A DNA stretch of 64,000 nucleotides from Kiritimatiellia bacterium. GTDB taxonomy: Bacteria > Verrucomicrobiota > Kiritimatiellia > RFP12 > UBA1067. Both the position numbers and the translations under genes were made by a program. Location of the stretch: NCBI GenBank assembly GCA_017514235.1, contig JAFWKK010000016.1:2221-66220 (forward strand), in the 5' to 3' direction. Shown one piece after another: positions 21,384 through 43,512 of this stretch. Under the pieces are notes generated by a model. The model had not been told where the DNA came from. It searched no databases and saw only the letters and a list, made by a program, of their open reading frames with translations. The first letter of the stretch is position 1; each line of letters starts with the position of its first letter.

Positions 21384-21384
21384 A

Positions 21385-23829: not shown

Positions 23830-23879
23830 CTGCTTGTCATGACGCACGGACAAGCAGAGGCAAGGGCGTTGCGTTTTTT
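23830..23879 (+). terminator. Terminator-like structure after the GH78-like gene
   Basis: CTGCTTGTC / GACAAGCAG is a perfect 9-bp stem with a 10-nt loop. It is followed by the small hairpin GCAAGGGCGTTGC and a T6 run. Confidence 0.45.
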
Positions 23880-23910
23880 ACAGGCGAATTGTAAAAAGTA
23901 CAGTTGATTT
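23871..23910 (+). promoter_or_regulatory. Conserved 40-nt upstream element, copy 1 (core ATTGTAAAAAGTACAGTTGATTT)
   Basis: 35/40 identical to 35763..35802, with the last 23 nt identical. Contains TGTA-N5-TACA and T[AG]CAG-N15-TACAG. Its 3' TTGATT serves as the -35. Confidence 0.7.
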
Positions 23911-23932
23911 TGCGTAGCTGGTGGCGTATAAT
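23904..23932 (+). promoter_or_regulatory. Promoter TTGATT-17 nt-TATAAT (DUF4091/GH123-like operon)
   Basis: The -35 is embedded in the conserved element. GCGTATAAT is the -10 region. The leader to ATG 24038 is about 100 nt. Confidence 0.6.
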
Positions 23933-26842: not shown

Positions 26843-29800
26843 ATGAAGCCAAAGGGAAGAGACGCATGAAAAGAAAGACTGTTTTCATAGTCGCGGGAGT
26901 TTTCCTGACAATGTCAGTCTCTGCGGACACCTACTACTGGCGCGGGTCCAACACCGCCTGGTCGGACTGGACAAACATCGCTGATGGCGGCTGGTCGCTT
27001 GCGCGCGATTCATATGTCGCGCCATCGCATGTGCCCGGCACGGATGCGGGCGACACGCTTTGGCCGTTTGGTGTTCAGTCACAAAACTATATAGGCAACT
27101 TCAATCTTGGCGGCGGCAGTTACACAGTTGCAGGCTACTCGTCGGAGGGCAATGTCCCTGCGAATTGGCAACTATATCAGTTGCAGATTACGAATGGAAC
27201 GCTGACGGTATCCAGTTTCCAGAAACCATTCAAGACGGGCAGCACTTCAGATCGTGCTCCAGTTGCATGGAGGTATGATGTCTGGAACGGCGCGACATTC
27301 AATTTTAATACGGTGCTTGGAGGCTTTGACCGGGCATACGGTGCAAGTGGGCTCTATGAATATTGGTATGTGATGTCTGGTGGTCGCATGAATCTTCCGG
27401 GGCCTTTGGTGCCTTGCGCTTTGGATGTTACCGTGAACAGCGGTGGCGTCCTGAATGTTGCAGACGGCACATTCCGCGTCAACAATAACTCTCATCGTGA
27501 TTATCCGAACAAGATCACAAACTTTGGCACACTACTTCTTCCGAATGGCTTTGAATGGGTTGCCGGCGATCCGTGGTCGCCTACCGCCAACAACTCAAAA
27601 GCCATGATCGTTACGCAAAGCGCCGGAGAAACCCGGATGGGCGGCGATTTCAAGAAGACCGGTCTTGAATCGCACAACTATACGGTGATGATGAAATTCG
27701 TGCTCCAGGGCGGAACGCTTACGGTCGAGGAGAACAAGTCGGTCTCGTTCATCAGCCACACGGACCGCAACTCAGGCTACACCAAGAGCGAGGAGGTGTT
27801 TGCCGAAATGCCTGCATCTGCATCGGCAACAGTGCAGACGCTTGCCGGCTCAGTGCTTGACATGTCACTCTTCACATACGGCAACGGGGCTGCGTTGACG
27901 AAGACGGGATCTGGCACTCTGATTATGAAGGATCGCCCGGCGACAGTCAATGTGACGGCGGGCATGCTCAAGTTGACGAATTCTGTTGCCGATCTTTCGG
28001 GTGTCAGCCTTTCGTCTGGCACGACGCTTGAGTTTGCGCAGGCTGGAAATGTTGCAGCTGTGGCTCCGACCGGCTATGCCAGCGCAGTCTTTGCGCTCGA
28101 CAACTCCGGAGGTGCCTTTACCGACGGCGCTAACGTGATCTCTTCGAACGACGCTGATTTTCTTGCGGCTGTGGCTACATCATTGAATGCCGGCGGCACG
28201 GTGCCGGCAGGCCTGGCCGCGATAGTGTCCGGCGGTGCGGTAAAGGTGATGACGCCGCCGTCGCACACGTTCACGAGCGATGGCGAACTTGACCTTGGCG
28301 ATGCGTCAGGCTGGAACATGCCAGGCTACGTCGGCACAAACGTGTTTGTAAGCGGCGCATCGACAGTCGCCCTGATTTCGCCGGCCACCCCTGCGTTCGA
28401 CAGCATCACGCTGAGCGACGGCGCGACGCTGAAGGTTTCTGGCGATGGCATCGAATTGCCGAAGATTACGTTGCTTACCCCGTCAACGCTCCTCGTGCCG
28501 GGCGGATCGAGCGCGGTGATGACCAATGGCTTCACGGCTGCTGGCGATGTGAGCGGACTGCCTGTCGTCAAAGTAGAGACGAACGGAGTTCTCACCGTGG
28601 CGCGCGGCACGAAGTTCAAGAACTGCGCGGTGAAGCTCTATGGCGAGATCGGCGTGCCGCCGGTCTATGGCGACGTCAAGCTTGCGGATGACCAGGGCAT
28701 TCAGTTCGGCTATGCAGCGGCGGGCGAGACGACGTACTTCGCGATGGAGTCCATCGGAGGCAATATAAATGTCTCCGGCAATACGACGGTGGACCGTCAG
28801 AAGGAGCTGACTTTTGCATGGGCGGACAACGGCGGCCGGGTGCTGACGTACGGAGACATCCTGCTGAAGGACACGACGTTCAAGACGCCGCAAGGAGCCT
28901 GGCATTACATCGGCAAAATGATCGGCGGCTATAATCCGGACGATTCCGGCATTCGTGTGGTGCTTGACAACACGGTGTTGCCGTTGCGGCGCTTCAACTG
29001 GTTCAATTCCGGTACTGTCGTCTGCCGTAATGGCGGGAGGCTGGAGCGTCAGGACTATCATGCAGGAACCGACTGTCGCCTGACTGTCGACAGATACACG
29101 AGGATCGAATGCGAGGGCGAAGGCTCTGGACTTTTCCTGCCGTACGCGAACGTATGGCGTCCGTTCTACTACGACATCTGGCTAGATGGCGGCGTCGACC
29201 AGTTCACGTTCAGGGACGGCGCGGTTATGGCGGCGCACTACTACTGGGGCGGCAACCATTCTGTTCTCGTCTTCTCCAACGGCGTCTACCAGGTGGGTAC
29301 GCTTCCGTTCGTTTCCAGCGACAGGAATCCCAACCCGCCGAATGGAGATCCGCACAACTGGATGACCAACGCATTCACCGGGGCACATTCTGTGCGTATC
29401 GAACGGGGCGGCAAGCTGTTCTTCCAGTCCGCGTCCGTTCTCAGCGGAACGGAGTGGGACCGATACATGACGCTTGCCGACAAGCCGATCAAGGGCGAAG
29501 GCGACTTCGTGATGACTAACGGCGTGCCGGGACGCGGTTTTTCTGCGACTGTGGTCTGCAACCGCAACACCTCGACCGGCTCGATCTCCGTTGCGCCGTC
29601 CGCCGATCCGACTACGCTCTTCTTCAACGACGGTGCGAACTGGGCGGGCACGGTCGTAGCGGGCAATATAGCGCTTACGAACCTGACAGCGGCGGCGAGC
29701 CCTTCGACAGTCAGTTTCAAGACGCTTGACCTTTGCGGAATCTTCCCGATCCGCATCATGGATAATGGCGGAATCCACACAAACGACGTTGTGAACATTT

Positions 29801-30033
29801 CAACGGCATTGACGGGTGGCGGCGCGATCAAGCCGATCGTGCAGCCGGGGCTCAGGCTGTCAGGCGGCGAGACCTTCGTGCTGGGAACATGCCCGGCGGC
29901 CGGCGTCGACACGTCCGGTCTGCAGTCGCATGTGACGCGCAACTGGGAGCTCATGTCCGAAGACGCAGGCGGCGGCAAGGTGCGGTTGCTGCTCAAGTAC
30001 ATGCCTCGCGGGCTGCTCATTTCAATAAGGTAA
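26839..30033 (+). CDS. Large secreted beta-helix/adhesin-like protein with a PATR (autotransporter-associated beta-strand) repeat and a short C-terminal tail motif; no beta-barrel
   Basis: ATGA overlap with the upstream stop. Basic N-terminus plus a hydrophobic signal. LTKTGSGTLIMKDRPATVNVTAGMLKL matches the PATR pattern. Ends in MPRGLLISIR. Confidence 0.8.
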   Translation: MNEAKGKRRMKRKTVFIVAGVFLTMSVSADTYYWRGSNTAWSDWTNIADGGWSLARDSYVAPSHVPGTDAGDTLWPFGVQSQNYIGNFNLGGGSYTVAGYSSEGNVPANWQLYQLQITNGTLTVSSFQKPFKTGSTSDRAPVAWRYDVWNGATFNFNTVLGGFDRAYGASGLYEYWYVMSGGRMNLPGPLVPCALDVTVNSGGVLNVADGTFRVNNNSHRDYPNKITNFGTLLLPNGFEWVAGDPWSPTANNSKAMIVTQSAGETRMGGDFKKTGLESHNYTVMMKFVLQGGTLTVEENKSVSFISHTDRNSGYTKSEEVFAEMPASASATVQTLAGSVLDMSLFTYGNGAALTKTGSGTLIMKDRPATVNVTAGMLKLTNSVADLSGVSLSSGTTLEFAQAGNVAAVAPTGYASAVFALDNSGGAFTDGANVISSNDADFLAAVATSLNAGGTVPAGLAAIVSGGAVKVMTPPSHTFTSDGELDLGDASGWNMPGYVGTNVFVSGASTVALISPATPAFDSITLSDGATLKVSGDGIELPKITLLTPSTLLVPGGSSAVMTNGFTAAGDVSGLPVVKVETNGVLTVARGTKFKNCAVKLYGEIGVPPVYGDVKLADDQGIQFGYAAAGETTYFAMESIGGNINVSGNTTVDRQKELTFAWADNGGRVLTYGDILLKDTTFKTPQGAWHYIGKMIGGYNPDDSGIRVVLDNTVLPLRRFNWFNSGTVVCRNGGRLERQDYHAGTDCRLTVDRYTRIECEGEGSGLFLPYANVWRPFYYDIWLDGGVDQFTFRDGAVMAAHYYWGGNHSVLVFSNGVYQVGTLPFVSSDRNPNPPNGDPHNWMTNAFTGAHSVRIERGGKLFFQSASVLSGTEWDRYMTLADKPIKGEGDFVMTNGVPGRGFSATVVCNRNTSTGSISVAPSADPTTLFFNDGANWAGTVVAGNIALTNLTAAASPSTVSFKTLDLCGIFPIRIMDNGGIHTNDVVNISTALTGGGAIKPIVQPGLRLSGGETFVLGTCPAAGVDTSGLQSHVTRNWELMSEDAGGGKVRLLLKYMPRGLLISIR
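30001..30030 (+). other. Extreme C-terminal tail motif MPRGLLISIR-stop
   Basis: Same motif as above. Encoded with AT-rich codons (TCA ATA AGG TAA). Confidence 0.6.
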
Positions 30034-30058
30034 CCCTAAAAGCAAGGAGGAAAATAAA

Positions 30059-30922
30059 ATGACACACAAGGAACGGAAAGAGGAAGTGCGCGAGATTCTC
30101 GCGCTGGATACGGATGAACTCGTGAAGCGCGCGAAGGGACAGCTGGTGCTGTTCCCGACGCTTGACGAAGTGTACGACTATCTCGCAGAAGAGATGGTGA
30201 AGGAGTTCGCCAAGGCGGCGAAGGGCAAGAAGATAGTGAACTTTATCATGCCTGTCGGCCCCACGCAGCCATACCGCCTGATGGCCGAGAAGATCAACTA
30301 CCGCCAGCTGAACCTGAAGAACGTCCGCTTCTTCTTTATGGACGAGTATGTCGACGACGAGAAGGACGAGCTTATCCCGAAGACTAGCCCGCTTTCGTTC
30401 CGCGGGCAGATCGGCCCGTTGCTCTTCAACCGCATCCGCCCGGACCTGATGATGCCGAAGGACCAGATAATCTTCCCGACACCGAAGAACGTCAAGGACC
30501 TCCCGAAGATGATAAAGGACGCCGGAGGCATCGAGGTGTGCTACGGCGGCATAGGCATCCACGGGCATGTCGCGTTCAACGAGCCGGCGCCGGGCGTGGC
30601 GGAGTCTAACCCGCGCATACTTGAGATCAACGAGTTCACGCGGACGATCGACTCTACGCGTCATTGCGGCGTCGGCGGCAATCTTGAGAACTTCCCGCGC
30701 CGCGCGATCACGATGGGCATGAAACAGTGTCTTGAAGCGCGCAAGATGCTCCTCATGACGCGCAACGAGACGACGGCGTACCTCTGGGCGAACACGATTC
30801 TCAGGATTGCCGCGCTCGGCAAGCCGGGCGACGACTATCCCGTCACCCACGCGCGCTACCACAAGAACCTGCGCATCGTCTCGGACTACGGCACGGCCCA
30901 GAAGCCCAGATTCAACATCTGA
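30059..30922 (+). CDS. nagB: Glucosamine-6-phosphate deaminase/isomerase family protein (NagB-like)
   Basis: AAGGAGG Shine-Dalgarno upstream. FFFMDEYV and GGIGIHGHVAFNEPAPG motifs. Confidence 0.78.
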   Translation: MTHKERKEEVREILALDTDELVKRAKGQLVLFPTLDEVYDYLAEEMVKEFAKAAKGKKIVNFIMPVGPTQPYRLMAEKINYRQLNLKNVRFFFMDEYVDDEKDELIPKTSPLSFRGQIGPLLFNRIRPDLMMPKDQIIFPTPKNVKDLPKMIKDAGGIEVCYGGIGIHGHVAFNEPAPGVAESNPRILEINEFTRTIDSTRHCGVGGNLENFPRRAITMGMKQCLEARKMLLMTRNETTAYLWANTILRIAALGKPGDDYPVTHARYHKNLRIVSDYGTAQKPRFNI

Positions 30923-30936
30923 CGGATTGCTGCCAG

Positions 30937-33141
30937 ATGTCGGGATTGCTTGCAGCATTTCTGTGCGCTGTCGGAATGCCGTCCTTGGCGTTTGACGAGG
31001 GCGGCTTTTCCATCGACTTCGCCGCTGCTTCGGCCCGGCGTTTCGCCAATGGCGCGAAGTTCACGGAACGGTCGGGCTATCCCGTGTCGGTGACGAACCG
31101 TCCGTTCGGATACATCGACAACCGCTTCGCGATTTCCGAAGGGCAGTGCGGAGTCGTGTCTTTCGGCTGGCGACGCGACAGCGCCTATCCGTGCAAAGTC
31201 CATACCAAAGACTTCCACTTCGAAATCGGCATTCCGCGCGGCTATCGCCTGCTGGGAACGACCTTTGGAGACGTCGCGTCGCGCAGAACGGATACGTCGC
31301 CTGACGGGTCGGCCGTCGTCCGCTGCAGGATCCGCGACGGACTCGAGCCGAGCTCGTGGATGAACAACCAGTCGCCATGCAATGTGCTTGTCGCGCCGAA
31401 TGACGGAGCGGGGACGGGGAACCTGACGTTCCGGGTCGTAGACCCGCGCGGAACCCCGCTTTCCAATCTTGCGTCCGTCGAGCTTTACTTAGTGCCGCCG
31501 GTGAAGGCGAAGGCGGTTCCGAAGCGTTTCCGCAACGGCATGGACGCCTCGTTGCACATATATTTCCGCGAGGCGTCAGCCTATGAGGAGCTAGCCAGAC
31601 TGTTCGGGGACATCGGCGCGAGGTGGCTGGTGCAGGACATTCGCAATGGGGCGTTCATTCCTTATTGGCGCAAGCATGCGGGAGGCCCTGTCACGCCGAT
31701 GTGGGAAAAAGTCATCGAGAACGGTTTCCGCGTCGGCCGTCCCGAAACCTTGCCTGCCTCGGAGCATTTCGTATGCGACCCGAAAAGTCCGCGCGTAACC
31801 CGTAAGGAGGGGCGTGCGAAGTACCTCTCAGACTCGACGTGCCCGACGACAGTCTACCGCGAAAGCGAGCATTTCAGGACCGTGACGATGGCCGAACTGG
31901 ACAGGCTTCTTGCCGGGGCGGACGGACTGTGGGGCAATTGGGAGCCGTCGATGTTCTACAAGAACGGCTGCTGGTGCGAACGTTGCCGCGACGAGTTCAC
32001 ATCATGGTCAATGCTGCCGGCGGACGAAGTGAAAAGGGAATGGCCGAAGCTTATCCAGGAAGGGGGACGTCTTGAAAGGCTGGGGTTGAAGTTCCATTCG
32101 TGGCAGCACGCTAACGTCGTGAGGACGCTTGACCGTTACGTCCGCAAGGCAACGGGCGGCGAGAAGTCCTGCGGATTCATTCCAGGCGTCGCTGCGGTGG
32201 AGATGTCCGATTACTGGCTGCGGACCGGATACCCGCAGGCAATGCTGCAGATCGACTATTCAGGCGACGTCAGGTGGATGAACCCGTGGGGGCCGTATGT
32301 GCGCTGGGAGTCGGAACACCCGTACGTGCATGAGCGCCGGGCCTCGCTGATCTACTGGGTTTACGCGCAGGACGTCAAAAGGACCGTGGCGATCGACCAT
32401 CGGGACGGGCGCATTCCGAAGCTGCTTTCGTATCCGCAGGGTGGCCAGTGCGGAACGTGGGTGACGCAGCCAGAGCAGATCGGCCTTGCGCTCGACTCGT
32501 TCCTGCTAAACGGCTGGGACGCCAATTGCGTCTATTATTTTCCGAACGGATACGATGCCCGTTACTTGAAGGCATTCGCCGAAGCCAACGAGCGCGCAGC
32601 CGTTGCGGAGGATTTCGTCTTGGACGGGACACCTGCGGACGACCGCGTTTTGGTCTCTCCGGTTGCGGAGTATGCCGTGCCGGTCAGGACAGTGACGGCA
32701 TGGCTGCCGGCTTACACTAACGTATCGCTCTTGCAGTCCAAGGCGTTCGACTTGAAGGGCAGCCGGCTGGTTGCAGTTCTTAACTTCTGGGATGCGGGGA
32801 TGGCGTTTGCCAGTCTGAAATGCAGCGGTCTTGCCGCAGGGGAGTATTCCGTGGTTTCGGGTGACATGGCCTGGGTCAAGGACCTCGAGCGTCCTTATTG
32901 GACGGCCGAAGAGCTGGCGAACGGGATTCGCGTTGCGGTCGGCGCGGCGAGATCGTCGTTCTTCGTGGTCCGTCCGCGGGGGACGCGCGTGCCGAGGGGA
33001 TTGGCCAGGCTTGTGACGAGCGACGCAATTGACGCGCTTTACGCGCAGCGCCGTGCCGCGCTCAGAGACGCGGCGGAACGCGATGCGGAAGAAGAGCGCC
33101 GCCTGCCGCCGCCGAAAATGGATTGGATGGGCCTTAACTGA
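30937..33141 (+). CDS. Hypothetical secreted protein (734 aa) with a CxCxxC motif
   Basis: Signal-like N-terminus MSGLLAAFLCAVGMPSLA. WGNWEPSMFYKNGCWCERCRDEF. No family recognised. Confidence 0.65.
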   Translation: MSGLLAAFLCAVGMPSLAFDEGGFSIDFAAASARRFANGAKFTERSGYPVSVTNRPFGYIDNRFAISEGQCGVVSFGWRRDSAYPCKVHTKDFHFEIGIPRGYRLLGTTFGDVASRRTDTSPDGSAVVRCRIRDGLEPSSWMNNQSPCNVLVAPNDGAGTGNLTFRVVDPRGTPLSNLASVELYLVPPVKAKAVPKRFRNGMDASLHIYFREASAYEELARLFGDIGARWLVQDIRNGAFIPYWRKHAGGPVTPMWEKVIENGFRVGRPETLPASEHFVCDPKSPRVTRKEGRAKYLSDSTCPTTVYRESEHFRTVTMAELDRLLAGADGLWGNWEPSMFYKNGCWCERCRDEFTSWSMLPADEVKREWPKLIQEGGRLERLGLKFHSWQHANVVRTLDRYVRKATGGEKSCGFIPGVAAVEMSDYWLRTGYPQAMLQIDYSGDVRWMNPWGPYVRWESEHPYVHERRASLIYWVYAQDVKRTVAIDHRDGRIPKLLSYPQGGQCGTWVTQPEQIGLALDSFLLNGWDANCVYYFPNGYDARYLKAFAEANERAAVAEDFVLDGTPADDRVLVSPVAEYAVPVRTVTAWLPAYTNVSLLQSKAFDLKGSRLVAVLNFWDAGMAFASLKCSGLAAGEYSVVSGDMAWVKDLERPYWTAEELANGIRVAVGAARSSFFVVRPRGTRVPRGLARLVTSDAIDALYAQRRAALRDAAERDAEEERRLPPPKMDWMGLN

Positions 33142-33150
33142 AACGGTGAA

Positions 33151-34551
33151 ATGAAACGATTTGATTTCTCTCGACGAGGATTTTTGCGGCTGGGCGTCGC
33201 GGGGGCGGCGATGTCTGCGGCCGACTGGCGACTGTGGGCGGCGGAGGAACGCCTGCCGGCCTACTACGGCGAGCATCTTGCAAAAGTCGCCGAGCGCATG
33301 CGCACGCTGTCGAAGAATTGCGACGACGCATTCTTCTTCATCACAGACCTGCACACGCCTTCAAACAGATGCGTTTCAGGACGGATTCTCGCCAAGTTGA
33401 TCGCCGAGACTGGCGTGAAGAAGGTGCTGTGCGGAGGAGATCTGACGGAAGCGTTCGGCGGCAAGGCGTCCGTCGACCGCACCGTAGCCGATTACCGCGA
33501 GCAATGGGTGGCGACGGTCGAGCGCGCTGGCGGCGAGTTCTATCCGGCGAAGGGCAACCATGATTTCACGATCAAGGACAGCCCGACGGCGCAGAGCGGC
33601 TTTACATACGACGGAAAGTCCGCGCACGACATCCTGATGGACACCGCAGCCGTCAGGGCGAATGCCGTCACGAACCCTGACGATCCTGAGGCATGCTACT
33701 ACTACGTCGACTGCCAGGAATCGCGCATGCGCTATATCGTAGCCGACACGACTGACAGCATAAGAACCGACCGCACCTATTGGGCGGTGCAGTACGGCAT
33801 TGGCGAAAGACAGCTCAGCTGGTTGGCGGAAAAGGCGTTTTCGACAATCCCTTCCGGCTGGGGCGCGCTAGTCATGCACCATATCCCAGTGACGGGAATC
33901 GCAAGCGGCGAGGACGGGAACCTGACTCTGTTCGCGCCGTGGCGGAATCTGCTTGAGGCATATCAGAACCGCAGCAAGGCGTCGGTTGGCGGCAAAGCAT
34001 ACGATTTCTCTTGTGCGCACGGACGGATCATTTGCAGCCTGACCGGACATGAACATGCGGAGAGACAGACGTTTCAGAACGGGCTCTGGCACATCACAGA
34101 ACCGTGCGACGCCGCATACAGCGACTACATCGTAGGCTCCTTGCCGTGGTGCAGGAACCTGCCGACGAAGGAGAAGGGCACGGTTTACGAACAGACGTTT
34201 GACGCCATCCACATTGACAGGCGCAACGATGTCCTGCACTTCACCCGCATAGGCGGCGGCGGAAACCGCATGTTCCATCTTGACTCCCTCCGCGCCAAGG
34301 TCGGCGAGCCGTTGCGACTCGCTGCGGCAAAGTTGAAGGGCGACGTGGCATGGGGATGCTACGACGCAGACAGGGCGACAAAGAAGCGGAATCCGAAGAA
34401 CAGGTACCAGCACTTCTACGGCTACTTCAACGATGTCGCGGATGTTTCGGCAGACGGCATGTTCACTTCAAAGAAGCCAGGCGAGTCGGTCGTTCTTGCA
34501 ACAGCCGCAAACGGCGACAAGGAGTTGTTTGCCGTGAGCACATCGTGTTAA
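33151..34551 (+). CDS. Tat-signal metallophosphoesterase
   Basis: MKRFDFSRRGFLRLGVAGAAMSAA twin-arginine signal. FFFITDLHTP, CGGDL, KGNHDF, MHHIP and TGHEH motifs. Confidence 0.8.
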   Translation: MKRFDFSRRGFLRLGVAGAAMSAADWRLWAAEERLPAYYGEHLAKVAERMRTLSKNCDDAFFFITDLHTPSNRCVSGRILAKLIAETGVKKVLCGGDLTEAFGGKASVDRTVADYREQWVATVERAGGEFYPAKGNHDFTIKDSPTAQSGFTYDGKSAHDILMDTAAVRANAVTNPDDPEACYYYVDCQESRMRYIVADTTDSIRTDRTYWAVQYGIGERQLSWLAEKAFSTIPSGWGALVMHHIPVTGIASGEDGNLTLFAPWRNLLEAYQNRSKASVGGKAYDFSCAHGRIICSLTGHEHAERQTFQNGLWHITEPCDAAYSDYIVGSLPWCRNLPTKEKGTVYEQTFDAIHIDRRNDVLHFTRIGGGGNRMFHLDSLRAKVGEPLRLAAAKLKGDVAWGCYDADRATKKRNPKNRYQHFYGYFNDVADVSADGMFTSKKPGESVVLATAANGDKELFAVSTSC

Positions 34552-34557: not shown

Positions 34558-35736
34558 TCAGGAGGGCGTCCGCTCGCGCCAGTCGGACGGGGTCAGCCCC
34601 GTTGCCGTAGAGAATGCGCGAGACAGGTATTCCAACGTAGAGAAGCCAGTTCGTGCCGCAACCTCCTTGATCGGCAGGGAAGTGTGCGAGAGAAGCTTCT
34701 TCGCCTCTTCAATTCGCGTTTCTGCAATTTGCCTCTGCACAGATGTGGCGATGTTGTCCCTGAAGGTGCGCTCCACGAGCGTGCGCGAGAACCCTACATG
34801 CCTGAATACGTCTGAAGCCGATATGCCCTTGGTGGCGTTAGAACGGATGAATGCGAGTGCATCTGCAAACCATTGTGGCGCATGCGGGTAGATGTTGGTA
34901 GATGCACGTTCGACGATTCCTTTGGGCGGTATGATCACCTGTGGAGGATTTTCTCGTGCATTCTTTTCCGACAGCATTTTTGCAAGCGCAGAGGCTGCGG
35001 CCCGTCCGATGGCAGGGGCGCCGGGGTCTATGCTTGAAAGGCGTGGCGTCGTGAACATGCAGAACATCGGGTCGTCATCCACGCCGAGTATCGCTACGTC
35101 GGACGGGGCCGAGAGTCTTAGCAAATGGCATGCGGCGAGAACGTGCGAAGCCCGAAGGTCATCGCAACAGAACACGCCTATGGGTTTCGGCAGCCGCTTA
35201 AGCCATTTGGAAAGGTCGTCAAAGTCAGGAGGCGATTCGATGTGGTCGCCCAGCAGGAAGTCGCGTCTGAAGCGGTTCTGGGGATGAAACGGCGGACGGT
35301 AGATTGCGGGACGAATCTTGTTCTTCTCAAGAAATGTGGCGAATGCGTTGCGACGCCTGTCCGAGAAGGAAACGCGGCGGTAGCCGCAGAACGCGAAGTT
35401 TGAGAATCGGTGCCGCATCAGATGCTCTGCGGCTAGGCGTCCGATTGCATCGGCATCAGTCTTGACTGTGGCGAACCTCGGCTGTGAGATTGCACAGAGG
35501 CAGTCAACGACAGGACTTTCGCATCGGGCCAGCGCCTTTGCCGTGCGGATGTCGACAACGCGGCAGATCCAGCCGTCGAATCCGTTGGACGCCTTGAACG
35601 CGGCTTGCTGGGGATCGACAAGCACGAGACTCCATTCCGGATGCTGTTCGGCGATCTCGGCAACGCCGCATATGCAGTTGCGTCCATAGGCACTAGACCG
35701 TTCTACGGCGACCGCTATGTTTATCTGTCGCTTCAT
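34558..35736 (-). CDS. XylR-like transcriptional regulator (periplasmic-binding-protein-like sugar sensor domain plus AraC-type HTH)
   Basis: N-terminus MKRQINIAVAVERSSAYGRN... is LacI/PBP1-like. The C-terminus SASDVFRHVGFSRTLVERTFR...IKEVAARTGFSTLEYLSRAFSTATGLTPSDWR is an AraC double HTH. The ATG lies 7 nt after TGTTATAAT on the minus strand. Confidence 0.85.
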   Translation of the reverse strand: MKRQINIAVAVERSSAYGRNCICGVAEIAEQHPEWSLVLVDPQQAAFKASNGFDGWICRVVDIRTAKALARCESPVVDCLCAISQPRFATVKTDADAIGRLAAEHLMRHRFSNFAFCGYRRVSFSDRRRNAFATFLEKNKIRPAIYRPPFHPQNRFRRDFLLGDHIESPPDFDDLSKWLKRLPKPIGVFCCDDLRASHVLAACHLLRLSAPSDVAILGVDDDPMFCMFTTPRLSSIDPGAPAIGRAAASALAKMLSEKNARENPPQVIIPPKGIVERASTNIYPHAPQWFADALAFIRSNATKGISASDVFRHVGFSRTLVERTFRDNIATSVQRQIAETRIEEAKKLLSHTSLPIKEVAARTGFSTLEYLSRAFSTATGLTPSDWRERTPS

Positions 35737-35743
35737 GCTCTGT

Positions 35744-35752
35744 ATTATAACA
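35744..35752 (-). promoter_or_regulatory. Extended -10 box TGTTATAAT on the minus strand (XylR-like regulator; leaderless)
   Basis: The reverse complement reads ATCTGTTATAATACAGAGCATG, with 7 nt between the -10 box and the ATG at 35736. Confidence 0.6.
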
Positions 35753-35762
35753 GATCTCCGTG

Positions 35763-35802
35763 GCGTTTTGTGCAGATGGATTGTAAAAAGTACAGTTGAT
35801 TT
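35763..35802 (+). promoter_or_regulatory. Conserved 40-nt upstream element, copy 2
   Basis: See copy 1. It lies between the divergent regulator promoter and the LamG-protein promoter. Confidence 0.7.
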
Positions 35803-35825
35803 CATGGAGATAGATTAAGTATAAT
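35796..35825 (+). promoter_or_regulatory. Promoter TTGATT-18 nt-TATAAT (LamG protein operon)
   Basis: The -35 is embedded in the conserved element. The leader to ATG 35908 is about 80 nt. Confidence 0.6.
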
Positions 35826-35907
35826 ACCCTGCAGAAGGAAAAACTGTGCACTTGACCACCGATTTCCATAACATCGGCTGCCCAAGCAGGGCGTCAGAAA
35901 GGAAACT

Positions 35908-37560
35908 ATGAAAAGGCCACACGCCTTTACCGTCGCATGTCTGGCAGGTTGTGCTTTTGCAGCCTTTGGAACGGCCTGCGCAGAAACGGTCGCGTGGTAT
36001 CGGTTCGATGATGCGGATCCGGGCACGAAGACTACCGGCGGCATGGCCGTAACAAACTGTGTGGACGCTTCGTATCCTGCCATGCCGCGCACGATTTATA
36101 ACACGACATACCATGACAGCGCGTCCCCGAACCAGAACTATCTACCGACCTTCGCCGAGTCCGCTCCGACAAACTATGTAGTCTATGACCCTGTGAGCGG
36201 ACGGCGTGTCGCAAATCGCGGAGGACTTCACTTCCACACGAACGGAAGCTCTGACCGAAATGGCGGCCTGCTGCGCATCGAGGATAACGCGGCTCTTCGG
36301 GCGATTACGAATTTGACGCTGGAAGCGTTCATCCGTCTGCCTACAGATGTAGCCATTGCGGCAAACTATATGCGCCCGATCATTCTCAAGATGAATGATG
36401 GGTATCAAGGATCGTGGGGACTGCATGTGTTCGAGTCCAACCTCATGCATCGCGCAACGCTTCTTCTCGCTGACAACTCGACGAAGGTCTGTGCGTGGGG
36501 GAACAAGTCGCAGAGCGCGCGGGTGGATGACGGGCGGTGGCACCATATGGCCGTGACGTATGATTTCGGCACTCGGAAGGCGCGTTCCTACGTGGACTAT
36601 GAGTGTATAAACACGTTGGATATTGATGCCAACGCAGTCGGGTTCTATCATCCCGAGAACAGTCCATTGCTGATCGGCGGCAACGACTTGAATAATACGC
36701 GCCGGTTCTGCGGCGACATCGACGAGGTGAGGATTTCGAACGAGGCCTTGCCGCCGGAGAAGTTCCTGCGGTACATCCCGTTGCGCGAGATTGATGCGGA
36801 CACTGCGTTCTACATGCCGTTTGACGATGGCTTGGCGGAGTGGTTCAGCGCGTCGTATCCGCCGCTCAACGCGGCGACGAATGCGCCGGGAGGAGTATTC
36901 TGCTACCGCAATGAAGGGACTCCTGCCGCAGCCCGCGTTTTGGATGTGCCTGGCGACGGCATTCGTGCGGGGCGGCAGTCGATGACAAGATTCGCAGACG
37001 GCGGTGCAATCAATCTTCCGGTTACAGCGGTAGGCGTACACAACGGCACGAGTTTCACGTTGCAGGATCCGAACAAGTCGGTGGCTTCTGGCAGCTATAC
37101 GTTCGAGGCGTTCTTCAAGACGGACCGCCAGGTGACGAAACCGGCGGAATCGACGTATGGCGATTCGTTCTGCATCTTCAATGCGGCTTTCATGAAGGTG
37201 CTCATAAACGGCGGCGCGGGCGGCGATACGCTTTTCCGCCACAAGAGCGTGGATGGCGATACGAGCCTGCAGCTTGGCCCTCGTCTTGACGACGGCGTAT
37301 GGCACCATATCGCCCTTGTGTTCGATGCCGACACGCTGACAATGACCGGCTATGTCGATTACAAGGCTGTCACATCCTCCGCCGTTAAGGCAAAGGATTA
37401 TTCCGGTTCCGGCGATATTCGCTTGAGCGGCGAGAACTCCGGCTATCAGACGTTTGCCGGAAGCTTCGATGAGGTACGCATTACGCGGCGGGCGTTGGAA
37501 ACGAGAGAGTTCCTGACGACACGTCCCATTACTGGGGGTGTAAGGATATTAATCCGTTGA
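35908..37560 (+). CDS. Secreted protein with two LamG (concanavalin-like) domains and a short C-terminal tail motif
   Basis: Signal peptide is present. LTLEAFIRLP...GRWHHMAVTYD...CGDIDEVRISNEALPPEKF, then YTFEAFFKTD...GVWHHIALVFD...FAGSFDEVRITRRAL. Ends in ITGGVRILIR. Confidence 0.85.
   Translation: MKRPHAFTVACLAGCAFAAFGTACAETVAWYRFDDADPGTKTTGGMAVTNCVDASYPAMPRTIYNTTYHDSASPNQNYLPTFAESAPTNYVVYDPVSGRRVANRGGLHFHTNGSSDRNGGLLRIEDNAALRAITNLTLEAFIRLPTDVAIAANYMRPIILKMNDGYQGSWGLHVFESNLMHRATLLLADNSTKVCAWGNKSQSARVDDGRWHHMAVTYDFGTRKARSYVDYECINTLDIDANAVGFYHPENSPLLIGGNDLNNTRRFCGDIDEVRISNEALPPEKFLRYIPLREIDADTAFYMPFDDGLAEWFSASYPPLNAATNAPGGVFCYRNEGTPAAARVLDVPGDGIRAGRQSMTRFADGGAINLPVTAVGVHNGTSFTLQDPNKSVASGSYTFEAFFKTDRQVTKPAESTYGDSFCIFNAAFMKVLINGGAGGDTLFRHKSVDGDTSLQLGPRLDDGVWHHIALVFDADTLTMTGYVDYKAVTSSAVKAKDYSGSGDIRLSGENSGYQTFAGSFDEVRITRRALETREFLTTRPITGGVRILIR
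37528..37557 (+). other. Extreme C-terminal tail motif ITGGVRILIR-stop
   Basis: Same motif as above. Encoded with AT-rich codons (GTA AGG ATA TTA ATC CGT). Confidence 0.6.
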
Positions 37561-37571
37561 CGGTGAGATTA

Positions 37572-38912
37572 ATGAGGCATGCTTGTTTCGTCCTGGCTAT
37601 GACGGTCGTATGGCTGTCGGCGCTTGGGGCGGCTGGCGACGGCGGCAAAAGCGTACGCTACTTCTCAAACGACGGCAACGATGCCGCCGACGGACTGACG
37701 CCCCAAACGGCTTGGCGAACACTGGAGAAGCTTTGCAAGGACCTGCCCGCCGGCGCAGAGGCGCGTCTTCGCCGAGGCGACGTGTTTTACGGCAAGGTAG
37801 AGTTGAAGCCTGGCTTGAGTTCAGAACAGCCAACCGTGCTCACGTCATACGGCGAGGGCGCAAAGCCGGAGATATGTGCGTTCAAGGTGGCGAAGCCCGA
37901 CCCGGCCGTGTGGACGCCTGCCGGCACGAACAACCTCTGGCGGATAGACCTCGGCGACTATTCGAAGTTCGGCGGCAACCACATGACAAGGAACGGCAAC
38001 GTAGGCTTCCTGAAGGTGAACGGCCGCATATTCGGCCGTAAGTTCTTTGCGAAGCTGAAGAAGCCTCTTGAGCGGCAATGGGACTTCATTGACGACGGAC
38101 GCAACCTCACTGTATGGAGCAGAGGCAATCCTGCGCTTGCAGCGAAGGACATCCGCATCGCCCCGTGCATGGGCACATTGCCGTTCAGGAATCACATTGT
38201 GGTGAGCAATGTCGTTGTGCGTGGCACTGGCGCTCATGGCGCAAACGGCTGTGGCGTTGACATCCGAATCTTCAACTGTGCGTTTCTGGAGATAGGCGGT
38301 TCGCATCTGTATGGACACGGCGAGGGCGTGTCCCGCTACGGCAACGGCGTGGAATGTTGGGGAGGATGTCGCGACGTGCAGGTGCGCCGATGCGTGTTTG
38401 CGGATGTTTACGATGTTGGTTTCACCATGCAAGGCAGGCAAGCTCCGTTTTCGTGGGAGAACATTCACGCTACTGACTGCGTATTCGTCAGGTGTTCGCA
38501 ATGCTATGAGCTTTGGTTGAACAACTGCCTTCCTGGGATCGGCATGAAGAACTGTTCTTTCATGCGCAACCGTTGCATCGACACCGCGCGCGGCTGGGCG
38601 TATGACGTGCGTCCGGACAAGGCGAATGCCGCGCCGCTCCTGATGTACACCATGGCTACGGACACATGCGACATTCTTGTAAAGGACAACATCTTCATCA
38701 ACTCGCGCGGATATCTCATATTCAAGTCGGGCGGACTGGCCAACCTGCCGGAATCATACCGCGTCGTCGACAACACGGTCGTAGGACCTACGAACCAGCC
38801 CCTTGCCAATTGCGTGGGGCAGGGAAAGGCAGCGGCCGAGGCCGTGCGCGAGCGGACCATCCGCGCCGCGAACAGATTTGTCAGCCGCATGAAAGACGTT
38901 CACTCGCATTAA
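37572..38912 (+). CDS. Secreted right-handed parallel beta-helix repeat protein (start ATG 37572, or TTG 37557)
   Basis: Signal-like MRHACFVLAMTVVWLSALGAAG. SNDGNDAADGLTPQTAWRTLEKL is typical of the N-terminus of pectate-lyase-fold proteins. Repeated G..G/N..V segments are present. Confidence 0.65.
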   Translation: MRHACFVLAMTVVWLSALGAAGDGGKSVRYFSNDGNDAADGLTPQTAWRTLEKLCKDLPAGAEARLRRGDVFYGKVELKPGLSSEQPTVLTSYGEGAKPEICAFKVAKPDPAVWTPAGTNNLWRIDLGDYSKFGGNHMTRNGNVGFLKVNGRIFGRKFFAKLKKPLERQWDFIDDGRNLTVWSRGNPALAAKDIRIAPCMGTLPFRNHIVVSNVVVRGTGAHGANGCGVDIRIFNCAFLEIGGSHLYGHGEGVSRYGNGVECWGGCRDVQVRRCVFADVYDVGFTMQGRQAPFSWENIHATDCVFVRCSQCYELWLNNCLPGIGMKNCSFMRNRCIDTARGWAYDVRPDKANAAPLLMYTMATDTCDILVKDNIFINSRGYLIFKSGGLANLPESYRVVDNTVVGPTNQPLANCVGQGKAAAEAVRERTIRAANRFVSRMKDVHSH

Positions 38913-38925
38913 AGGGGAGATTGCA

Positions 38926-40353
38926 ATGAGTACACTTGGAATTCTAGCTGCCGTTATTGCGCTTGTGCCGGCTCCGCGAGAGCAGGCCTGGCGCGATGGC
39001 GTCTGCAACCTTGCGGAGAAGGGCGTTCGCTTCGTGCAAGATGCAACGCTGCCGCCAGAGGGCTATCGGCTCGACATCACGCCTGACGGCGCGACCGTGG
39101 CGAGCGCGGACGATGCGGGCGCGTTCTATGCCAGGAAGACGCTTAAGCAGCTTGGAACCAATGCGGTTCCGTGCGGAACCGTGACGGACGCGCCGGCATT
39201 CCGCTGGCGCGGTTTAATGCTTGACGAGGGCCGGCACTTCTTCGGCAAGGAGACGGTGAAGGCGCTGCTCGACCAGATGGCCGATCACAAGCTCAACGTG
39301 TTCCATTGGCATCTGACCGAAGACCAGGGCTGGCGGCTCGCCATCGACCGCTTTCCGGAGCTCGTGCAATACGGGGCCGTGCGGCCAGAGTCGCCGGTAC
39401 ATGGGTGCACTGGCAGGCCGAACGAATACCGCGGCAACGGACAGGTTTACGGTCCTTACTTTTACACGGCGACGGACGTGCGCGAAATACTCGCCTATGC
39501 GAAGGAACGCTTCATAACGGTCGTGCCGGAGATCGAGGTTCCGGGGCATGCCCGCGCGCTCCTCGCTGCGCACCCTGAGTTTGCGTGCCGCGAAGGGCTG
39601 CCGCGCGTGCCGCGCACGATGAACGGCATCGAGGACGATGTTCTCTGCGCCGGGAACGATGCGGCGATCCGTTTCATGGAACAGGTCTATGACGAGGTGT
39701 GCGCGCTCTTTCCCGGAACATACGTTCACATCGGCGGTGACGAGTGTCCGAAGAAGCGGTGGAAGGAGTGTCCGAAGTGTCAGGCGCGCATAAAGGCGCT
39801 TGGCCTCAAGGACGAGGACGCCCTTCAAGCATGGGTGACGCGACACTTCACCGACTATCTCGCGAAGAAAGGTCGGCGGACCATCGGTTGGGACGAGATA
39901 CTGGCCGGGGACCCTGGCTTGGAGACGGTTGTGCACAACTGGCGCAAGCCCGAATATGGAATTGAGGCGGCGGAGAAGGGGCATGACGTGGTCGTGTCCG
40001 CGCTTGGAGCGACGTACTTCTCCGTGCCGCAGGGCGTGAAGGACGATCCGTTCACCTATCTCAGCCCCAAGAGGCGCTGTCCGCTCGAAACTGCCTATGC
40101 GTTCGACCCTCTTGCAGGCATGACGGAGACGGCGAAGAAACGCGTTCTGGGCGCTGAATGCTGCATGTGGAGCGAATGCGTATGGAACGAGTACGACCTC
40201 GCCTTCAAGCTGTGGCCCCGCGCCTGCGCGTTCGCGGAGGCGGTGTGGACCGCACCTGCCGCCCCGCGTGATTTCACGGACTTCTCGCGTCGCATGGCCG
40301 TTCACCGCTCGCGTCTCATATCCGCAGGCGTCAACTGCGCTCCTTTGGAGTGA
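38926..40353 (+). CDS. Beta-N-acetylhexosaminidase (GH20)
   Basis: FRWRGLMLDEGRHFF, KLNVFHWHLTEDQGWRL and HIGGDECP motifs. GGGGAG Shine-Dalgarno upstream. Confidence 0.9.
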   Translation: MSTLGILAAVIALVPAPREQAWRDGVCNLAEKGVRFVQDATLPPEGYRLDITPDGATVASADDAGAFYARKTLKQLGTNAVPCGTVTDAPAFRWRGLMLDEGRHFFGKETVKALLDQMADHKLNVFHWHLTEDQGWRLAIDRFPELVQYGAVRPESPVHGCTGRPNEYRGNGQVYGPYFYTATDVREILAYAKERFITVVPEIEVPGHARALLAAHPEFACREGLPRVPRTMNGIEDDVLCAGNDAAIRFMEQVYDEVCALFPGTYVHIGGDECPKKRWKECPKCQARIKALGLKDEDALQAWVTRHFTDYLAKKGRRTIGWDEILAGDPGLETVVHNWRKPEYGIEAAEKGHDVVVSALGATYFSVPQGVKDDPFTYLSPKRRCPLETAYAFDPLAGMTETAKKRVLGAECCMWSECVWNEYDLAFKLWPRACAFAEAVWTAPAAPRDFTDFSRRMAVHRSRLISAGVNCAPLE

Positions 40354-40392
40354 ACGGCCCTACTTGAAGCCGTGGATTTTCAGGCGGGGTTT

Positions 40393-40401
40393 TGGTAAAA
40401 T
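40393..40401 (+). promoter_or_regulatory. Extended -10 box TGGTAAAAT (Tat phosphatase gene)
   Basis: Followed by ACC, matching the TGGTAnAATAC pattern. AAGGAGGA Shine-Dalgarno lies before ATG 40443. Confidence 0.45.
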
Positions 40402-40442
40402 ACCTTCATCAAGGTTTCAGCAATCCAAGGAGGACTTCTGTG

Positions 40443-41768
40443 ATGGATCAGAGCAGGCGCGAGTTCTTGACGAACACGGCTTGGAAGGGTGCTGCCGCAA
40501 TGGCGGCGGCAGGTGCTGCAAAATGCGGCATGGGGATGCTTCCAAGCGAACAGGCCGCTTACGACAGGTACAACGCGCTGACGATACCAAGGCCTGACGG
40601 CATTCTGGACGGAGAGCCGGTTCTGCAGGTCCCGGCGCCTGACTCGATGGGCGTTGCGTTCGCCGTGACTGCGCTTGCGAACGGTTTTGTGGAATTGGCG
40701 GACAATGCCCAGATGAAAGGTTCCGTGCGGTTCATGGCGGAGGGAATGCCGCAGGCAGGCATCGACGACCGCGTGCTGCAGGTGCGGATGACCGGACTCA
40801 AGTCCGGAACGAGGTACTGGTACCGTGCCGGAGCGGCGAAGCTTGAGCACCCGGTCGGCTACTGGACGAAGCCGTCGGAGATCGTATGGAGCGCGGTCCA
40901 CACGTTCGTCACCCCCGGCGAAAACGCGCCGTCCCACTTCGGCATGATGTGCGACACGCACGCCCACTTCGAGCAGATGGGGAAGATCACGAAGAAGTAC
41001 CGTGAGCTTGGCGTACCGCTGATGGTCTGGAACGGCGACATTCCTCGGAGTCTCACGAACAATCGAGAGGATTTCGTTCGGCACTATCTCGTGCCGCCGC
41101 ACAACGCAGGATACGCCGCAGACACGCCGATCATCCTGAACCGAGGCAACCATGACTACCGCGGCACTGCGGTGAAGCGCCTGGGAGAAGTGATGATGCC
41201 GCGCCTGCCGACAGAGCGTTCGGCGCGCGACTTCGCGCTCGACCGCAACTTTGCGTTCCGCATGGGGGAAGTCGCGCTTATAGGGCTTGACACCGGGGAG
41301 GACAAGCCAGACCATCATCCCGCCAACGGAGGCCTGTCCAGGTTTACCCCGTTCCGCATAGCGCAGACAGAGTGGCTGAGGGATCAGTTCAAGCGTCCGG
41401 AGATAGCAAGAGCTCCGTACGTCGTTGCATTCGTGCACATACCTTTGATCGAGCTTTGGCCCGGGGCCAACCCAGGGACGCTGCTTGAAGACTATGCCGT
41501 ATGGCAGAAGGAGTGCGCGGACCTGTGGGGCCCGATCCTCACCGAAAACAAGGCGCAGCTTGTCCTCGCCGGTCATATCCACCGTTACCGCTACGATGCC
41601 GCGACGCCGACGCGCTCGTGGGCGGAGATAGTGGGCGGAGGACGCGGGGACAGAACGTTTCAGACGCTGGTCGAGGGAAAGGTTGAGAACGGTCGGCTAG
41701 TGATACGCGTCTACAACACAGACGCCGGAACTGTCGTAGGCGAACATGTCTTCGCCCCGCGTGCATAA
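40443..41768 (+). CDS. Tat-signal purple-acid-phosphatase-like metallophosphoesterase
   Basis: MDQSRREFLTNTAWKGAAAMAAAGAA signal after AAGGAGGA. N-terminal PAP-like beta domain (LKSGTRYWYR). MMCDTHAH, WNGDI, RGNHDYRG and AGHIHRYRY motifs. Confidence 0.8.
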   Translation: MDQSRREFLTNTAWKGAAAMAAAGAAKCGMGMLPSEQAAYDRYNALTIPRPDGILDGEPVLQVPAPDSMGVAFAVTALANGFVELADNAQMKGSVRFMAEGMPQAGIDDRVLQVRMTGLKSGTRYWYRAGAAKLEHPVGYWTKPSEIVWSAVHTFVTPGENAPSHFGMMCDTHAHFEQMGKITKKYRELGVPLMVWNGDIPRSLTNNREDFVRHYLVPPHNAGYAADTPIILNRGNHDYRGTAVKRLGEVMMPRLPTERSARDFALDRNFAFRMGEVALIGLDTGEDKPDHHPANGGLSRFTPFRIAQTEWLRDQFKRPEIARAPYVVAFVHIPLIELWPGANPGTLLEDYAVWQKECADLWGPILTENKAQLVLAGHIHRYRYDAATPTRSWAEIVGGGRGDRTFQTLVEGKVENGRLVIRVYNTDAGTVVGEHVFAPRA

Positions 41769-41815
41769 CGCTGCTGCGGGAATGGCAAAGCAAGCAAAGA
41801 AACAGGAGGACGTTC

Positions 41816-42676
41816 ATGATGACAAGAAGGGATTTTCTGTCCGCATCTGCACTCGCTGCAGGCGCGTTCGTGGCAGGCGGCTGCGTTACGGCGGCGGCGA
41901 AACGCCGTCCGCAGGTAGCGGCGCAGCTCTACTCGATATGGAAGATTTTCTGGAAAGAGCCAGAGAAATGCCTTGCCGCCTTGAAAGCAGGCGGATTCGA
42001 TGGCGTTGAGTTCGCCGGATACGAGAACCACACGGCGAAGGAGATACGCAAGATGCTTTCCGACGCCGGGCTGAAGGCCGCGGGCACGCACGTGAACGGC
42101 GACATCGATCTCGTGGGCGACGGGCTGAAGCGATCTCTCGACTTCTGCGTCGAGGCTGGGATCGAAAGCATAACGACGCCGCACGCGAAGCGCGATTCCG
42201 CCGACGCCTACCGCCGCTTCGGGCATGACATGGGGCTGGCTGCCGAGGCCGCCGCGCCGTACGGCATAAAGGTCGGGGTTCACACGACGTACCATCACTT
42301 CACAACCGTCTATGAAGGCGGGATGACGGCGTGGGACGCCATCTACAGCGATGCGTCTAAACTGCTTCAGCAGCAGATCGACACGGCTAATGCGCTCCAC
42401 ACGGGCACTGACGTGGTCGCCCTCCTGAAGAAATACAGGAACCGTCATCACTCGATACACCTGAAGGAGAACGTGCCTACAGTGGCCGGCATCTTCGGCG
42501 AACGCCCGACGGACGGCGGACCGCTCGTTCCGTGGGACGAAGTCTTTGACTACATGTCCACCGAGCCGGGGTGCAGGTGGTACATCATAGAGGCGGAAGG
42601 CAAGCCGGACTCGCTTGAGCCTTGCATAGCCAACTGCCGTTTCGTGATGAAGGAGCTGGAGAGATGTCGCTTGTAA
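41816..42676 (+). CDS. Tat-signal sugar phosphate isomerase/epimerase (xylose-isomerase-like TIM barrel)
   Basis: MMTRRDFLSASALAAGAFVAGGC signal. GFDGVEFAGYENH and other AP-endonuclease-2/TIM family features. AGGAGGA Shine-Dalgarno upstream. Confidence 0.78.
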   Translation: MMTRRDFLSASALAAGAFVAGGCVTAAAKRRPQVAAQLYSIWKIFWKEPEKCLAALKAGGFDGVEFAGYENHTAKEIRKMLSDAGLKAAGTHVNGDIDLVGDGLKRSLDFCVEAGIESITTPHAKRDSADAYRRFGHDMGLAAEAAAPYGIKVGVHTTYHHFTTVYEGGMTAWDAIYSDASKLLQQQIDTANALHTGTDVVALLKKYRNRHHSIHLKENVPTVAGIFGERPTDGGPLVPWDEVFDYMSTEPGCRWYIIEAEGKPDSLEPCIANCRFVMKELERCRL

Positions 42677-43491
42677 ACATGAGGGAGATGCTGTGCGAGG
42701 CGCGGAACGCGCATCGCGCCGCAGGTGCCTTCAACGTCACGAACTACGAAACGGCTGCGGCTGTACTGAAGGCTGCGGAAGCCGAAAATGAGCCTGTCAT
42801 CATACAGCTTTACATGCGTCTCTTCGACACAGGCAAGGCATATGACCTCGCCGGGACGCTTCAGCGTCTCGCTTTCCGCGCCAAGGTTCCGGTAGCCCTG
42901 CATCTCGACCACGGCAATACGGTGAAGCAGGCGACGGACGCCCTCGCATGGGGCTATACGTCGGTCATGTACGATGGCTCGCGCTCGCCTTATGACGAGA
43001 ACGTGAAGTGGACGAAGCATGTGGCCGACTACGCCCATGCCCTCGGCGCCACGTGCGAAGGCGAAATCGGCCACGTCGCCCAGGGCGACGAGACAGCCCT
43101 GACCGACGTGGACGAGGCTGTGTCTTTCGCCAAGGCTACGGGCGTGGACGCGCTAGCCGTCTCGATCGGCACGGCGCACGGCTACTACAAGGCGGAGCCT
43201 AAGCTCGACATCGCACGCTGCGCGGCGATTGCGGATGCCCTGCCTGACGTTCCGCTCGTCCTGCACGGCGGCAGCGGAACCCCGCTCGCGGACGTGAGAA
43301 GGGCGATAGAGAGCGGCATCGCCAAGGTGAACATCGCCACGGAGTTCCTCGACGGCTACATCAAGTCGACGCTCAAGGTCTATGGCGATCTTCAGGGCGC
43401 GTTCGTGCCGCCTGACAAACTGGCGGATCCGATCATCGACGCGTGCGCCGCGCACGTACGACGGCTGATAAAGTTCTTTGCGGGAAGATAA
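42664..43491 (+). CDS. Class II ketose-bisphosphate aldolase (tagatose/fructose-1,6-bisphosphate aldolase family)
   Basis: AFNVTNYE, LHLDHG, SVMYDGS, CEGEIGHV, IGTAHGYY and LVLHGGSG motifs. It overlaps the upstream gene by 13 nt. Confidence 0.88.
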   Translation: MSLVNMREMLCEARNAHRAAGAFNVTNYETAAAVLKAAEAENEPVIIQLYMRLFDTGKAYDLAGTLQRLAFRAKVPVALHLDHGNTVKQATDALAWGYTSVMYDGSRSPYDENVKWTKHVADYAHALGATCEGEIGHVAQGDETALTDVDEAVSFAKATGVDALAVSIGTAHGYYKAEPKLDIARCAAIADALPDVPLVLHGGSGTPLADVRRAIESGIAKVNIATEFLDGYIKSTLKVYGDLQGAFVPPDKLADPIIDACAAHVRRLIKFFAGR

Positions 43492-43512
43492 ACAGGCGAA
43501 CGAAAGGGCGAG

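Follow-up and report, generated by a model that had tools for sequence, protein, structure and literature searches.

A XylR-type regulator and its probable tandem-repeat operator at two glycan-degradation operons of a Kiritimatiellia bacterium

Introduction

Kiritimatiellae degrade glycans in animal guts, where they are abundant, and hardly any have been cultured. To our knowledge nothing is known of how they regulate their CAZyme loci (our literature search returned no paper on promoters in Kiritimatiellae or on regulators of the XylR type for amino sugars). The locus described here raises the question in a concrete form. In the 64-kb stretch of DNA that was analysed, which we refer to as the window, a regulator gene on the minus strand and an operon on the plus strand, headed by a gene for a LamG-domain protein, are separated by the intergenic region 35737–35907. 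An initial annotation of this region had proposed that a 40-nt element within it is an operator through which the adjacent XylR/AraC-like regulator controls both the LamG operon and its own synthesis. Is this element the binding site of the neighbouring regulator, and what would the regulator do there? A point of reference is provided by Escherichia coli XylR, which binds sites of ~37 bp made of two direct repeats that adjoin the −35 of two operons, and which requires its sugar to do so (PMC3561964).

Results

The regulator and the operons on either side of it

The regulator has an N-terminal Peripla_BP_3 domain (1.9e-33) and a C-terminal AraC-type double helix-turn-helix domain (HTH_18, 4.8e-19) in Pfam, and E. 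coli XylR (4FE4) matches it over its full length in a phmmer search (residues 7–388 against 8–385, E = 4.1e-38). It has the architecture of the XylR type, which combines a PBP/LacI-type ligand domain with an AraC-type double helix-turn-helix in a protein of ~390 amino acids. An alignment of 120 homologues, most of which are 390–397 amino acids long, begins at a conserved M-K-x-Q..IAVAxERSSAYGR motif, and its first methionine corresponds to the ATG at 35736 which the initial annotation had already taken as the start. A longer mechanical reading frame of 415 amino acids, which starts at an ATG at 35805 and would place the element inside the gene, was rejected because the extension is not conserved and the homologues are 390–397 amino acids in length.

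We also considered, and rejected, the possibility that the regulator is a xylose-specific XylR orthologue. Of the six residues with which E. coli XylR contacts xylose, only three are clearly retained (Tyr18, Arg139 and Asp219, as Y17, R128 and D220), with Trp135 replaced by F124 and Gln237 by P238 in the pocket and Asp65 ambiguous (V61/D62), and there are no genes for XylA, XylB or a xylose ABC transporter in the two operons that we assign to the regulator (Table 1).

The seven genes of the LamG operon (operon 2) are separated by gaps of no more than 47 nt and encode, in order, the LamG-domain protein, a 451-aa protein without an assigned identity, a GH20 hexosaminidase, a purple-acid-phosphatase-like metallophosphatase, an AP_endonuc_2 TIM-barrel protein, a class II ketose-bisphosphate aldolase and an MFS transporter, and these domain assignments agree with the gene content originally given for the operon. 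The first ATG, at 35908, is preceded by an AAGGA ribosome-binding site, and the gene after the operon, encoding ETF beta (44833), has a TGGTATAAT-7 nt-ATG arrangement of its own. Operon 1, which is convergent with the regulator gene, encodes a GH123 β-N-acetylgalactosaminidase-like protein, a 1064-aa unknown, a 287-aa NagB/AgaI-like deaminase, a 734-aa unknown and a metallophosphatase. A convergent operon with a second copy of the element is also found in two related loci (L011 and L050), and the neighbours of the regulator in relatives include GH109, GH123, GH20, LamG, NagB-like and AP_endonuc_2 genes. The shared theme of the genes around the regulator is the breakdown of glycans containing GalNAc or GlcNAc, and the regulon in the window very probably consists of the two operons on either side of the regulator. 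Because of the substitutions in the ligand pocket and the gene content of this regulon, the effector is likely to be a sugar other than xylose, with amino sugars of the GalNAc/GlcNAc type, or their derivatives, as the simplest candidates.

Further glycan genes lie upstream of operon 1 at 13106–23829, where no element is found; they encode a NagA-like amidohydrolase, a 1140-aa GH39-like protein, a 1141-aa unknown and a rhamnosidase-like protein, and are presumably under different control. A perfect 9-bp hairpin at 23830–23857 (CTGCTTGTC, a 10-nt loop and GACAAGCAG) begins 1 nt past the stop of the rhamnosidase-like gene (21385–23829) and lies just upstream of one copy of the element. It has no adjacent T-run and so was not called by the terminator scan, and a search of the whole window with Rfam at gathering thresholds found no known RNA element.

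Table 1. Features of the regulator locus in the window (operator and promoter assignments are predictions).
Feature	Position	Strand	Description and basis
Operon-1 candidate operator (copy 1)	23868..23907	plus	Unit A 23868–23887, unit B 23888–23907; 65.8 bits, E 1.5e-19
Operon-1 promoter (predicted)	23904..23932	plus	TTGATT, 17 nt, TATAAT
Operon 1	24038..34551	plus	Five genes; convergent with the regulator gene
Regulator gene	34558..35736	minus	392 aa; ATG 35736–35734; start fixed by alignment of homologues
Regulator extended −10 (predicted)	35744..35752	minus	TGTTATAAT, 7 nt upstream of the ATG; conserved in orthologues
Candidate operator, unit A (distal, 20 nt)	35760..35779	plus	GTGGCGTTTTGTGCAGATGG; footprint alignments
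Candidate operator, unit B (proximal, 20 nt)	35780..35799	plus	ATTGTAAAAAGTACAGTTGA; footprint alignments; the 23-mer is also in copy 1
Operon-2 promoter (predicted)	35796..35825	plus	TTGATT 35796–35801, 18 nt, TATAAT 35820–35825; matches 10 of 12 consensus positions
Operon 2	35908..44766	plus	Seven genes; gene gaps ≤47 nt

Two copies of the element, each overlapping a predicted promoter

A repeat finder paired 35759–35802 with 23867–23910, 11.9 kb away, with 86% identity over 44 nt, which places the element where the initial annotation had it and extends its length from 40 to 44 nt. The two copies have an exact 23-mer, ATTGTAAAAAGTACAGTTGATTT, in common, and when up to three mismatches are allowed this gives two matches in the window against an expected 0.00 in shuffled sequences. 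A profile run over the entire window, unfiltered, found these two copies and no others (E about 1e-19, with the next match at E = 0.24); a half-site pattern allowing one mismatch added only matches at 16437 and 51647, which are at chance level.

Each copy ends in a TTGATT-17/18-TATAAT promoter and heads one of the two operons flanking the regulator. The promoter originally proposed for the LamG operon was recovered by a consensus scan at the same place and with the same 18-nt spacing, and both predicted operon promoters are of the sigma-70 type (TTGnnn, 16–18 nt, TAnnnT), with the hexamers and spacing conserved across orthologues. The −35 hexamer begins within unit B and shares its first 4 nt with the end of that unit. 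The short direct repeats noticed earlier, TGCAG (35771–35775) and TACAG (35791–35795), are indeed 20 nt apart and prove to be parts of whole 20-nt repeat units. The inverted repeat TGTA-N5-TACA is likewise present, at 35783–35795, but was rejected as a binding site since its arms are not conserved and are lost without compensation in six relatives (L003, L004, L005, L006, L008 and L009).

A conserved double-repeat footprint in orthologous loci

The element was compared across about 35 related loci from metagenomes and MAGs, which were obtained by exact-protein look-ups and one metagenome scan (35 loci). When the 130 nt before the conserved start codon of the regulator were aligned for 25 of these loci, three conserved islands were apparent in otherwise unalignable DNA: the TGnTAnAAT of the regulator, a block of ~40 nt, and the TATAAT of the operon. 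A sequence-only profile (R1) found the block in nearly all loci with a regulator that is at least 57% identical, with one or two matches per locus. Overall the element has one to four copies per genome or locus, and there are few loci in which it does not adjoin the XylR-like gene. All 34 profile matches in loci oriented by the regulator are on the strand opposite to it, placed either divergently from it or at the head of a convergent downstream operon.

A footprint alignment of 26 sites from 22 loci, with regulators that are 57–89% identical, gave the consensus tGTkGCGTTTTnTrCAGryGAATTGTAAAAAGTACAGTTGatTT - 17/18 variable nt - TAtAAT. ATTG, TTG and T.G are invariant in the 26 sites and T.CA is nearly invariant in both units. 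The sequence of the spacer behind the block is free, and the TAtAAT and its distance of 17–18 nt are kept in all full-length copies, so the distance between the candidate operator and the operon −10 is fixed and unit B overlaps the −35 by 4 nt. The block consists of two direct-repeat units of 20 nt, each of the form TKGYR-N6-TRCAG, with T-K-G at positions 2–4, T-R-C-A-G at 12–16 and G at 19 in the same register in both. The two boxes of a unit are about one helical turn apart, and the pattern is repeated after 20 nt. This compares with the MarA-type footprint of ~20 bp, in which one double helix-turn-helix domain reads two major-groove boxes one helical turn apart (PMC3561964). In its two direct repeats, total length within the ~37–40 bp range and overlap with the −35, the site is built like a XylR-type operator.

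Several loci depart from the standard layout. Two metagenome contigs encode an identical regulator protein (L001, 1053–1123, and L002, 5309–5335), and one of them, L002, is without 19 nt of the element that make up the core of unit B and the −35, which is either a natural promoter/operator deletion variant or an assembly error. In some relatives (L047, L025, L006, L012 and L016) the regulator and the full element have 1.2–3.3 kb of other genes between them, and in L047 (3234–3266) and L025 (1781–1812) a truncated element, consisting of unit A and half of unit B, still adjoins the regulator gene; this suggests insertions inside the operator region. The ORFs adjoining the element in UBA3841 were considered as its regulator and rejected, as the regulator there sits 3.3 kb away beside a partial element.

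Rarity of the element and co-variation with the regulator

A degenerate 28-mer was used for a search, blind to the regulator, of 185,579 species represented by one genome each, and gave eight matches. Seven are in Kiritimatiellae-type gut or rumen MAGs, and the eighth is a half-match in a bin labelled Ignavibacteriales. The regulator signature FCCDDLR is present within the 5–8 kb fetched at four of the eight loci and a fifth shares its contig with one of these, while the signature was not found within the DNA fetched for the other three. Two of these three (L040 and L044) lie between co-directional genes, as does copy 1 in the window. The rarity of the element led us to reject a generic promoter or UP-element reading. 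The Ignavibacteriales-labelled half-match (L045, 2684–2740) has a good unit B and a correctly spaced TATAAT without a unit A, and could be a mis-binned contig, a transfer or a chance match.

A second clade of regulators (L026–L034, 50–53% identity) has the same layout, with a divergent TATAAT, a double repeat of ~40 nt and a TATAAT-8 nt-ATG, and its neighbours likewise include NagB-like, GH123 and AP_endonuc_2 genes. The corresponding site, read in the orientation of the operon, is GTGTGGCGAAATTTACATGCnACTTGTAATATTTCACATTGCGCC, which retains TKGYR as its first box and has TTnACAT, not GTRCAG, as its second. A site that drifts with the adjacent regulator at a fixed position is what would be expected of that regulator's operator.

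The predicted promoter of the regulator gene

Genes are leaderless when transcription starts within ~1–2 nt of the start codon, without a Shine-Dalgarno sequence. The spacing on which such a start had been proposed for the regulator is exact in the window (the 7 nt are 35737–35743, ACAGAGC on the minus strand, ahead of TGTTATAAT), and among the 25 aligned loci the TG and TAnAAT of the TGnTAnAAT box are invariant or nearly so, with 6–8 nt to the ATG or GTG in 22. The second clade, with 8 nt, has this arrangement too, and the prediction of a leaderless mRNA is strengthened accordingly. In several relatives (including L003 and L004) the upstream ATG chosen by gene callers falls within TATAATG, and a conserved methionine follows three codons after that start, again 7 nt past the box. 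The regulator mRNA would then start at the ATG, or 1 nt before it, from an extended −10 promoter. TATAAT-N6-8-ATG occurs five times in the window against 0.16 expected; the other four matches, all on the plus strand, are at 44820–44835, 54278–54294, 8461–8476 and 17831–17845, and three of these four are at plausible starts (that of ETF beta at 44833, that of the ORF 54292–55389, and an in-frame ATG in the ORF 8408–8764). Leaderless genes with extended −10 boxes seem to be common in this organism and no peculiarity of the regulator.

In the window, positions −24 to −63 of the regulator promoter fall within the candidate operator (with unit A at about −24 to −43), and in most relatives the end of the operator is near −36. 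The spacing between it and the regulator TGnTAnAAT, counted by hand from the alignments, is shortest in the window and in L001, its closest relative (10 nt), and measures 18–20 nt in 16 loci, 30 nt in L003 and 41 nt in L020. This range weakens the case for a precise auto-regulatory geometry, and auto-regulation, while plausible, is far less certain than control of the operon. The steps of ~10 nt are a hint of helical phasing.

Discussion

Is the element the operator of its neighbour? With fair confidence we regard the 40-nt element as the DNA-binding site of the adjacent XylR-type regulator, and the basis of this link is the co-occurrence and co-variation of the two in sequence comparisons. 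The original proposal that the site serves both operon control and auto-regulation has fared differently in its two halves, with conservation of the block, the fixed distance to the −10, linkage to the regulator and co-variation all supporting the first, and the second left on weaker ground.

The anatomy of the site suggests how it might be used. The two boxes of each unit would be read by one AraC-type domain with its two helix-turn-helix motifs, and because there are two double-box units, and one double helix-turn-helix domain for each, a single regulator dimer would fill the whole 40 bp. The PBP-like domain would take up a sugar released from the substrate, on which the regulator would bind its sites and activate both operons by touching RNA polymerase at the −35. 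Occupancy of the operator would probably also modulate synthesis of the regulator itself. We favour sugar-dependent activation because the fixed overlap with the −35 is the geometry of the AraC/XylS class and because XylR needs xylose. The assignment of one dimer to each 40-bp site is less certain since Ni et al. (2013) reported that one XylR dimer binds two separate duplexes (PMC3561964).

The system resembles E. coli XylR (PDB 4FE4/4FE7) in protein length, two-domain build and end-to-end alignment, and in having operators of ~37–40 bp, like IA and IF, with two direct repeats by the −35 and one site at each of two operons. It differs in that protein identity is distant and the operator sequence unrelated (the XylR consensus is gaAa-a-a-AAT), and in that XylR controls xylAB/xylFGH whereas the genes here are for hexosaminidases, a NagB-like deaminase and an aldolase. 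The regulator gene here is also divergent from its target operon, with the operator region in common, and is predicted to be leaderless. As the two sites are 11.9 kb apart, compared with ~360 bp for E. coli XylR, looping between them in the manner of XylR is unlikely. The tandem half-sites with a period of ~20–21 bp are a feature generally known from AraC (araI1-I2 at pBAD), RhaS, MelR and XylS, and AraC and other class II activators also have a proximal half-site that overlaps the −35 by ~4 bp and a divergent regulator promoter in the same region. Unlike AraC, the ligand domain here is of the PBP/LacI type and not a jelly-roll, and the −35 and −10 are much nearer consensus than those of pBAD; nor did we find a distal O2-like site or a CRP site here, as in the AraC system. 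The marbox of MarA, SoxS and Rob is similarly ~20 bp read via two boxes, which matches the TKGYR-N6-TRCAG unit, but these proteins act as monomers on single boxes and the two tandem units here imply a dimer.

The alternative that deserves most weight leaves the regulator on its site and reverses its sign. In E. coli, a promoter with TTG and a perfect TATAAT at optimal spacing would be active without an activator, and the invariant TTG and perfect TATAAT conserved here at 17–18 nt mean that a site on the −35 could equally serve repression relieved by sugar: the regulator would sit on the −35 when sugar is lacking and leave when it is present, and would also repress its own extended −10 promoter, of which the site spans −24 to −63 in the window. 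We think this rather unlikely, as many orthologous sites have a −35 of only TTGCGT, TTGCGG, TTGCAC or TTGTGT, and direct repeats overlapping the −35 by ~4 bp are generally regarded as a hallmark of AraC/XylS activators (AraC at I2, RhaS and XylS). E. coli XylR, moreover, requires its sugar for DNA binding (PMC3561964), which also speaks against repression.

Other explanations dispense with the regulator altogether, and we give them little credence. The element contains T4 and A5 tracts, includes the −35 and is part of a promoter in both copies, so it might be thought a generic promoter context of the lineage, an UP-element-like A/T tract joined to a −35. This is very improbable given that it is rare, with one to four copies that are nearly always near the regulator and eight matches across the 185,579 species genomes; there are only two copies in the window despite other TATAAT promoters there (44820 and 54278), the conserved positions contain G/C (TKG and TRCAG), and the corresponding site of the sister clade differs in sequence. 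Somewhat less remote, though still improbable, is that the element is bound by an unlinked regulator of the NagC/ROK, GntR or DeoR type and the XylR-like gene is a mere neighbour. NagC, NagR and AgaR are generally known to run amino-sugar regulons in other phyla, but a bipartite direct repeat of 2 × 20 nt suits AraC-type domains and not the palindromes of NagC, GntR or DeoR dimers, the sole palindrome present is not conserved, and the site adjoins the XylR-like gene in nearly all loci and changes with the clade of the regulator. Least credible of all is that the pair of copies arose by recent duplication within the locus or represents a functionless mobile-element remnant, for which the identity of the 23-mer in both copies and the rearranged or partial copies in L002, L025 and L047 might be cited. 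The orthologous loci do carry the element, the block is kept, at a fixed register to the −10, in loci with regulators up to 43% different and flanks that cannot be aligned, and no inverted terminal repeats or transposase accompany it in the window.

Returning to sugar-dependent activation by the adjacent regulator, this can be taken one step further in a tentative and somewhat doubtful proposal, in which a Kiritimatiellae-specific branch of XylR has turned to amino-sugar sensing and a single dimer on the 40-bp operator drives both divergent promoters with positive feedback. In most orthologues one end of the operator may overlap the −35 of the glycan operon while the other adjoins the leaderless regulator gene's −35 position, and insertions and deletions of roughly whole helical turns would then allow the single bound dimer to drive both.

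The regulator and its predicted operator make a well-supported XylR/AraC-type sugar switch which is of an ordinary kind and mechanistically unsurprising, and our understanding of AraC/XylR-type control is left unchanged. What is gained for the Kiritimatiellae is a concrete candidate regulator–operator pair with a 2 × 20-bp motif, a defined local regulon (GH20, GH123, a NagB-like deaminase, an aldolase and an MFS transporter, with GH109 in relatives), and working evidence for TATAAT-type promoters and leaderless starts in this lineage. The motif may be of use in annotating regulons for amino-sugar and mucin-type glycans in MAGs, or as a sugar-inducible expression part.
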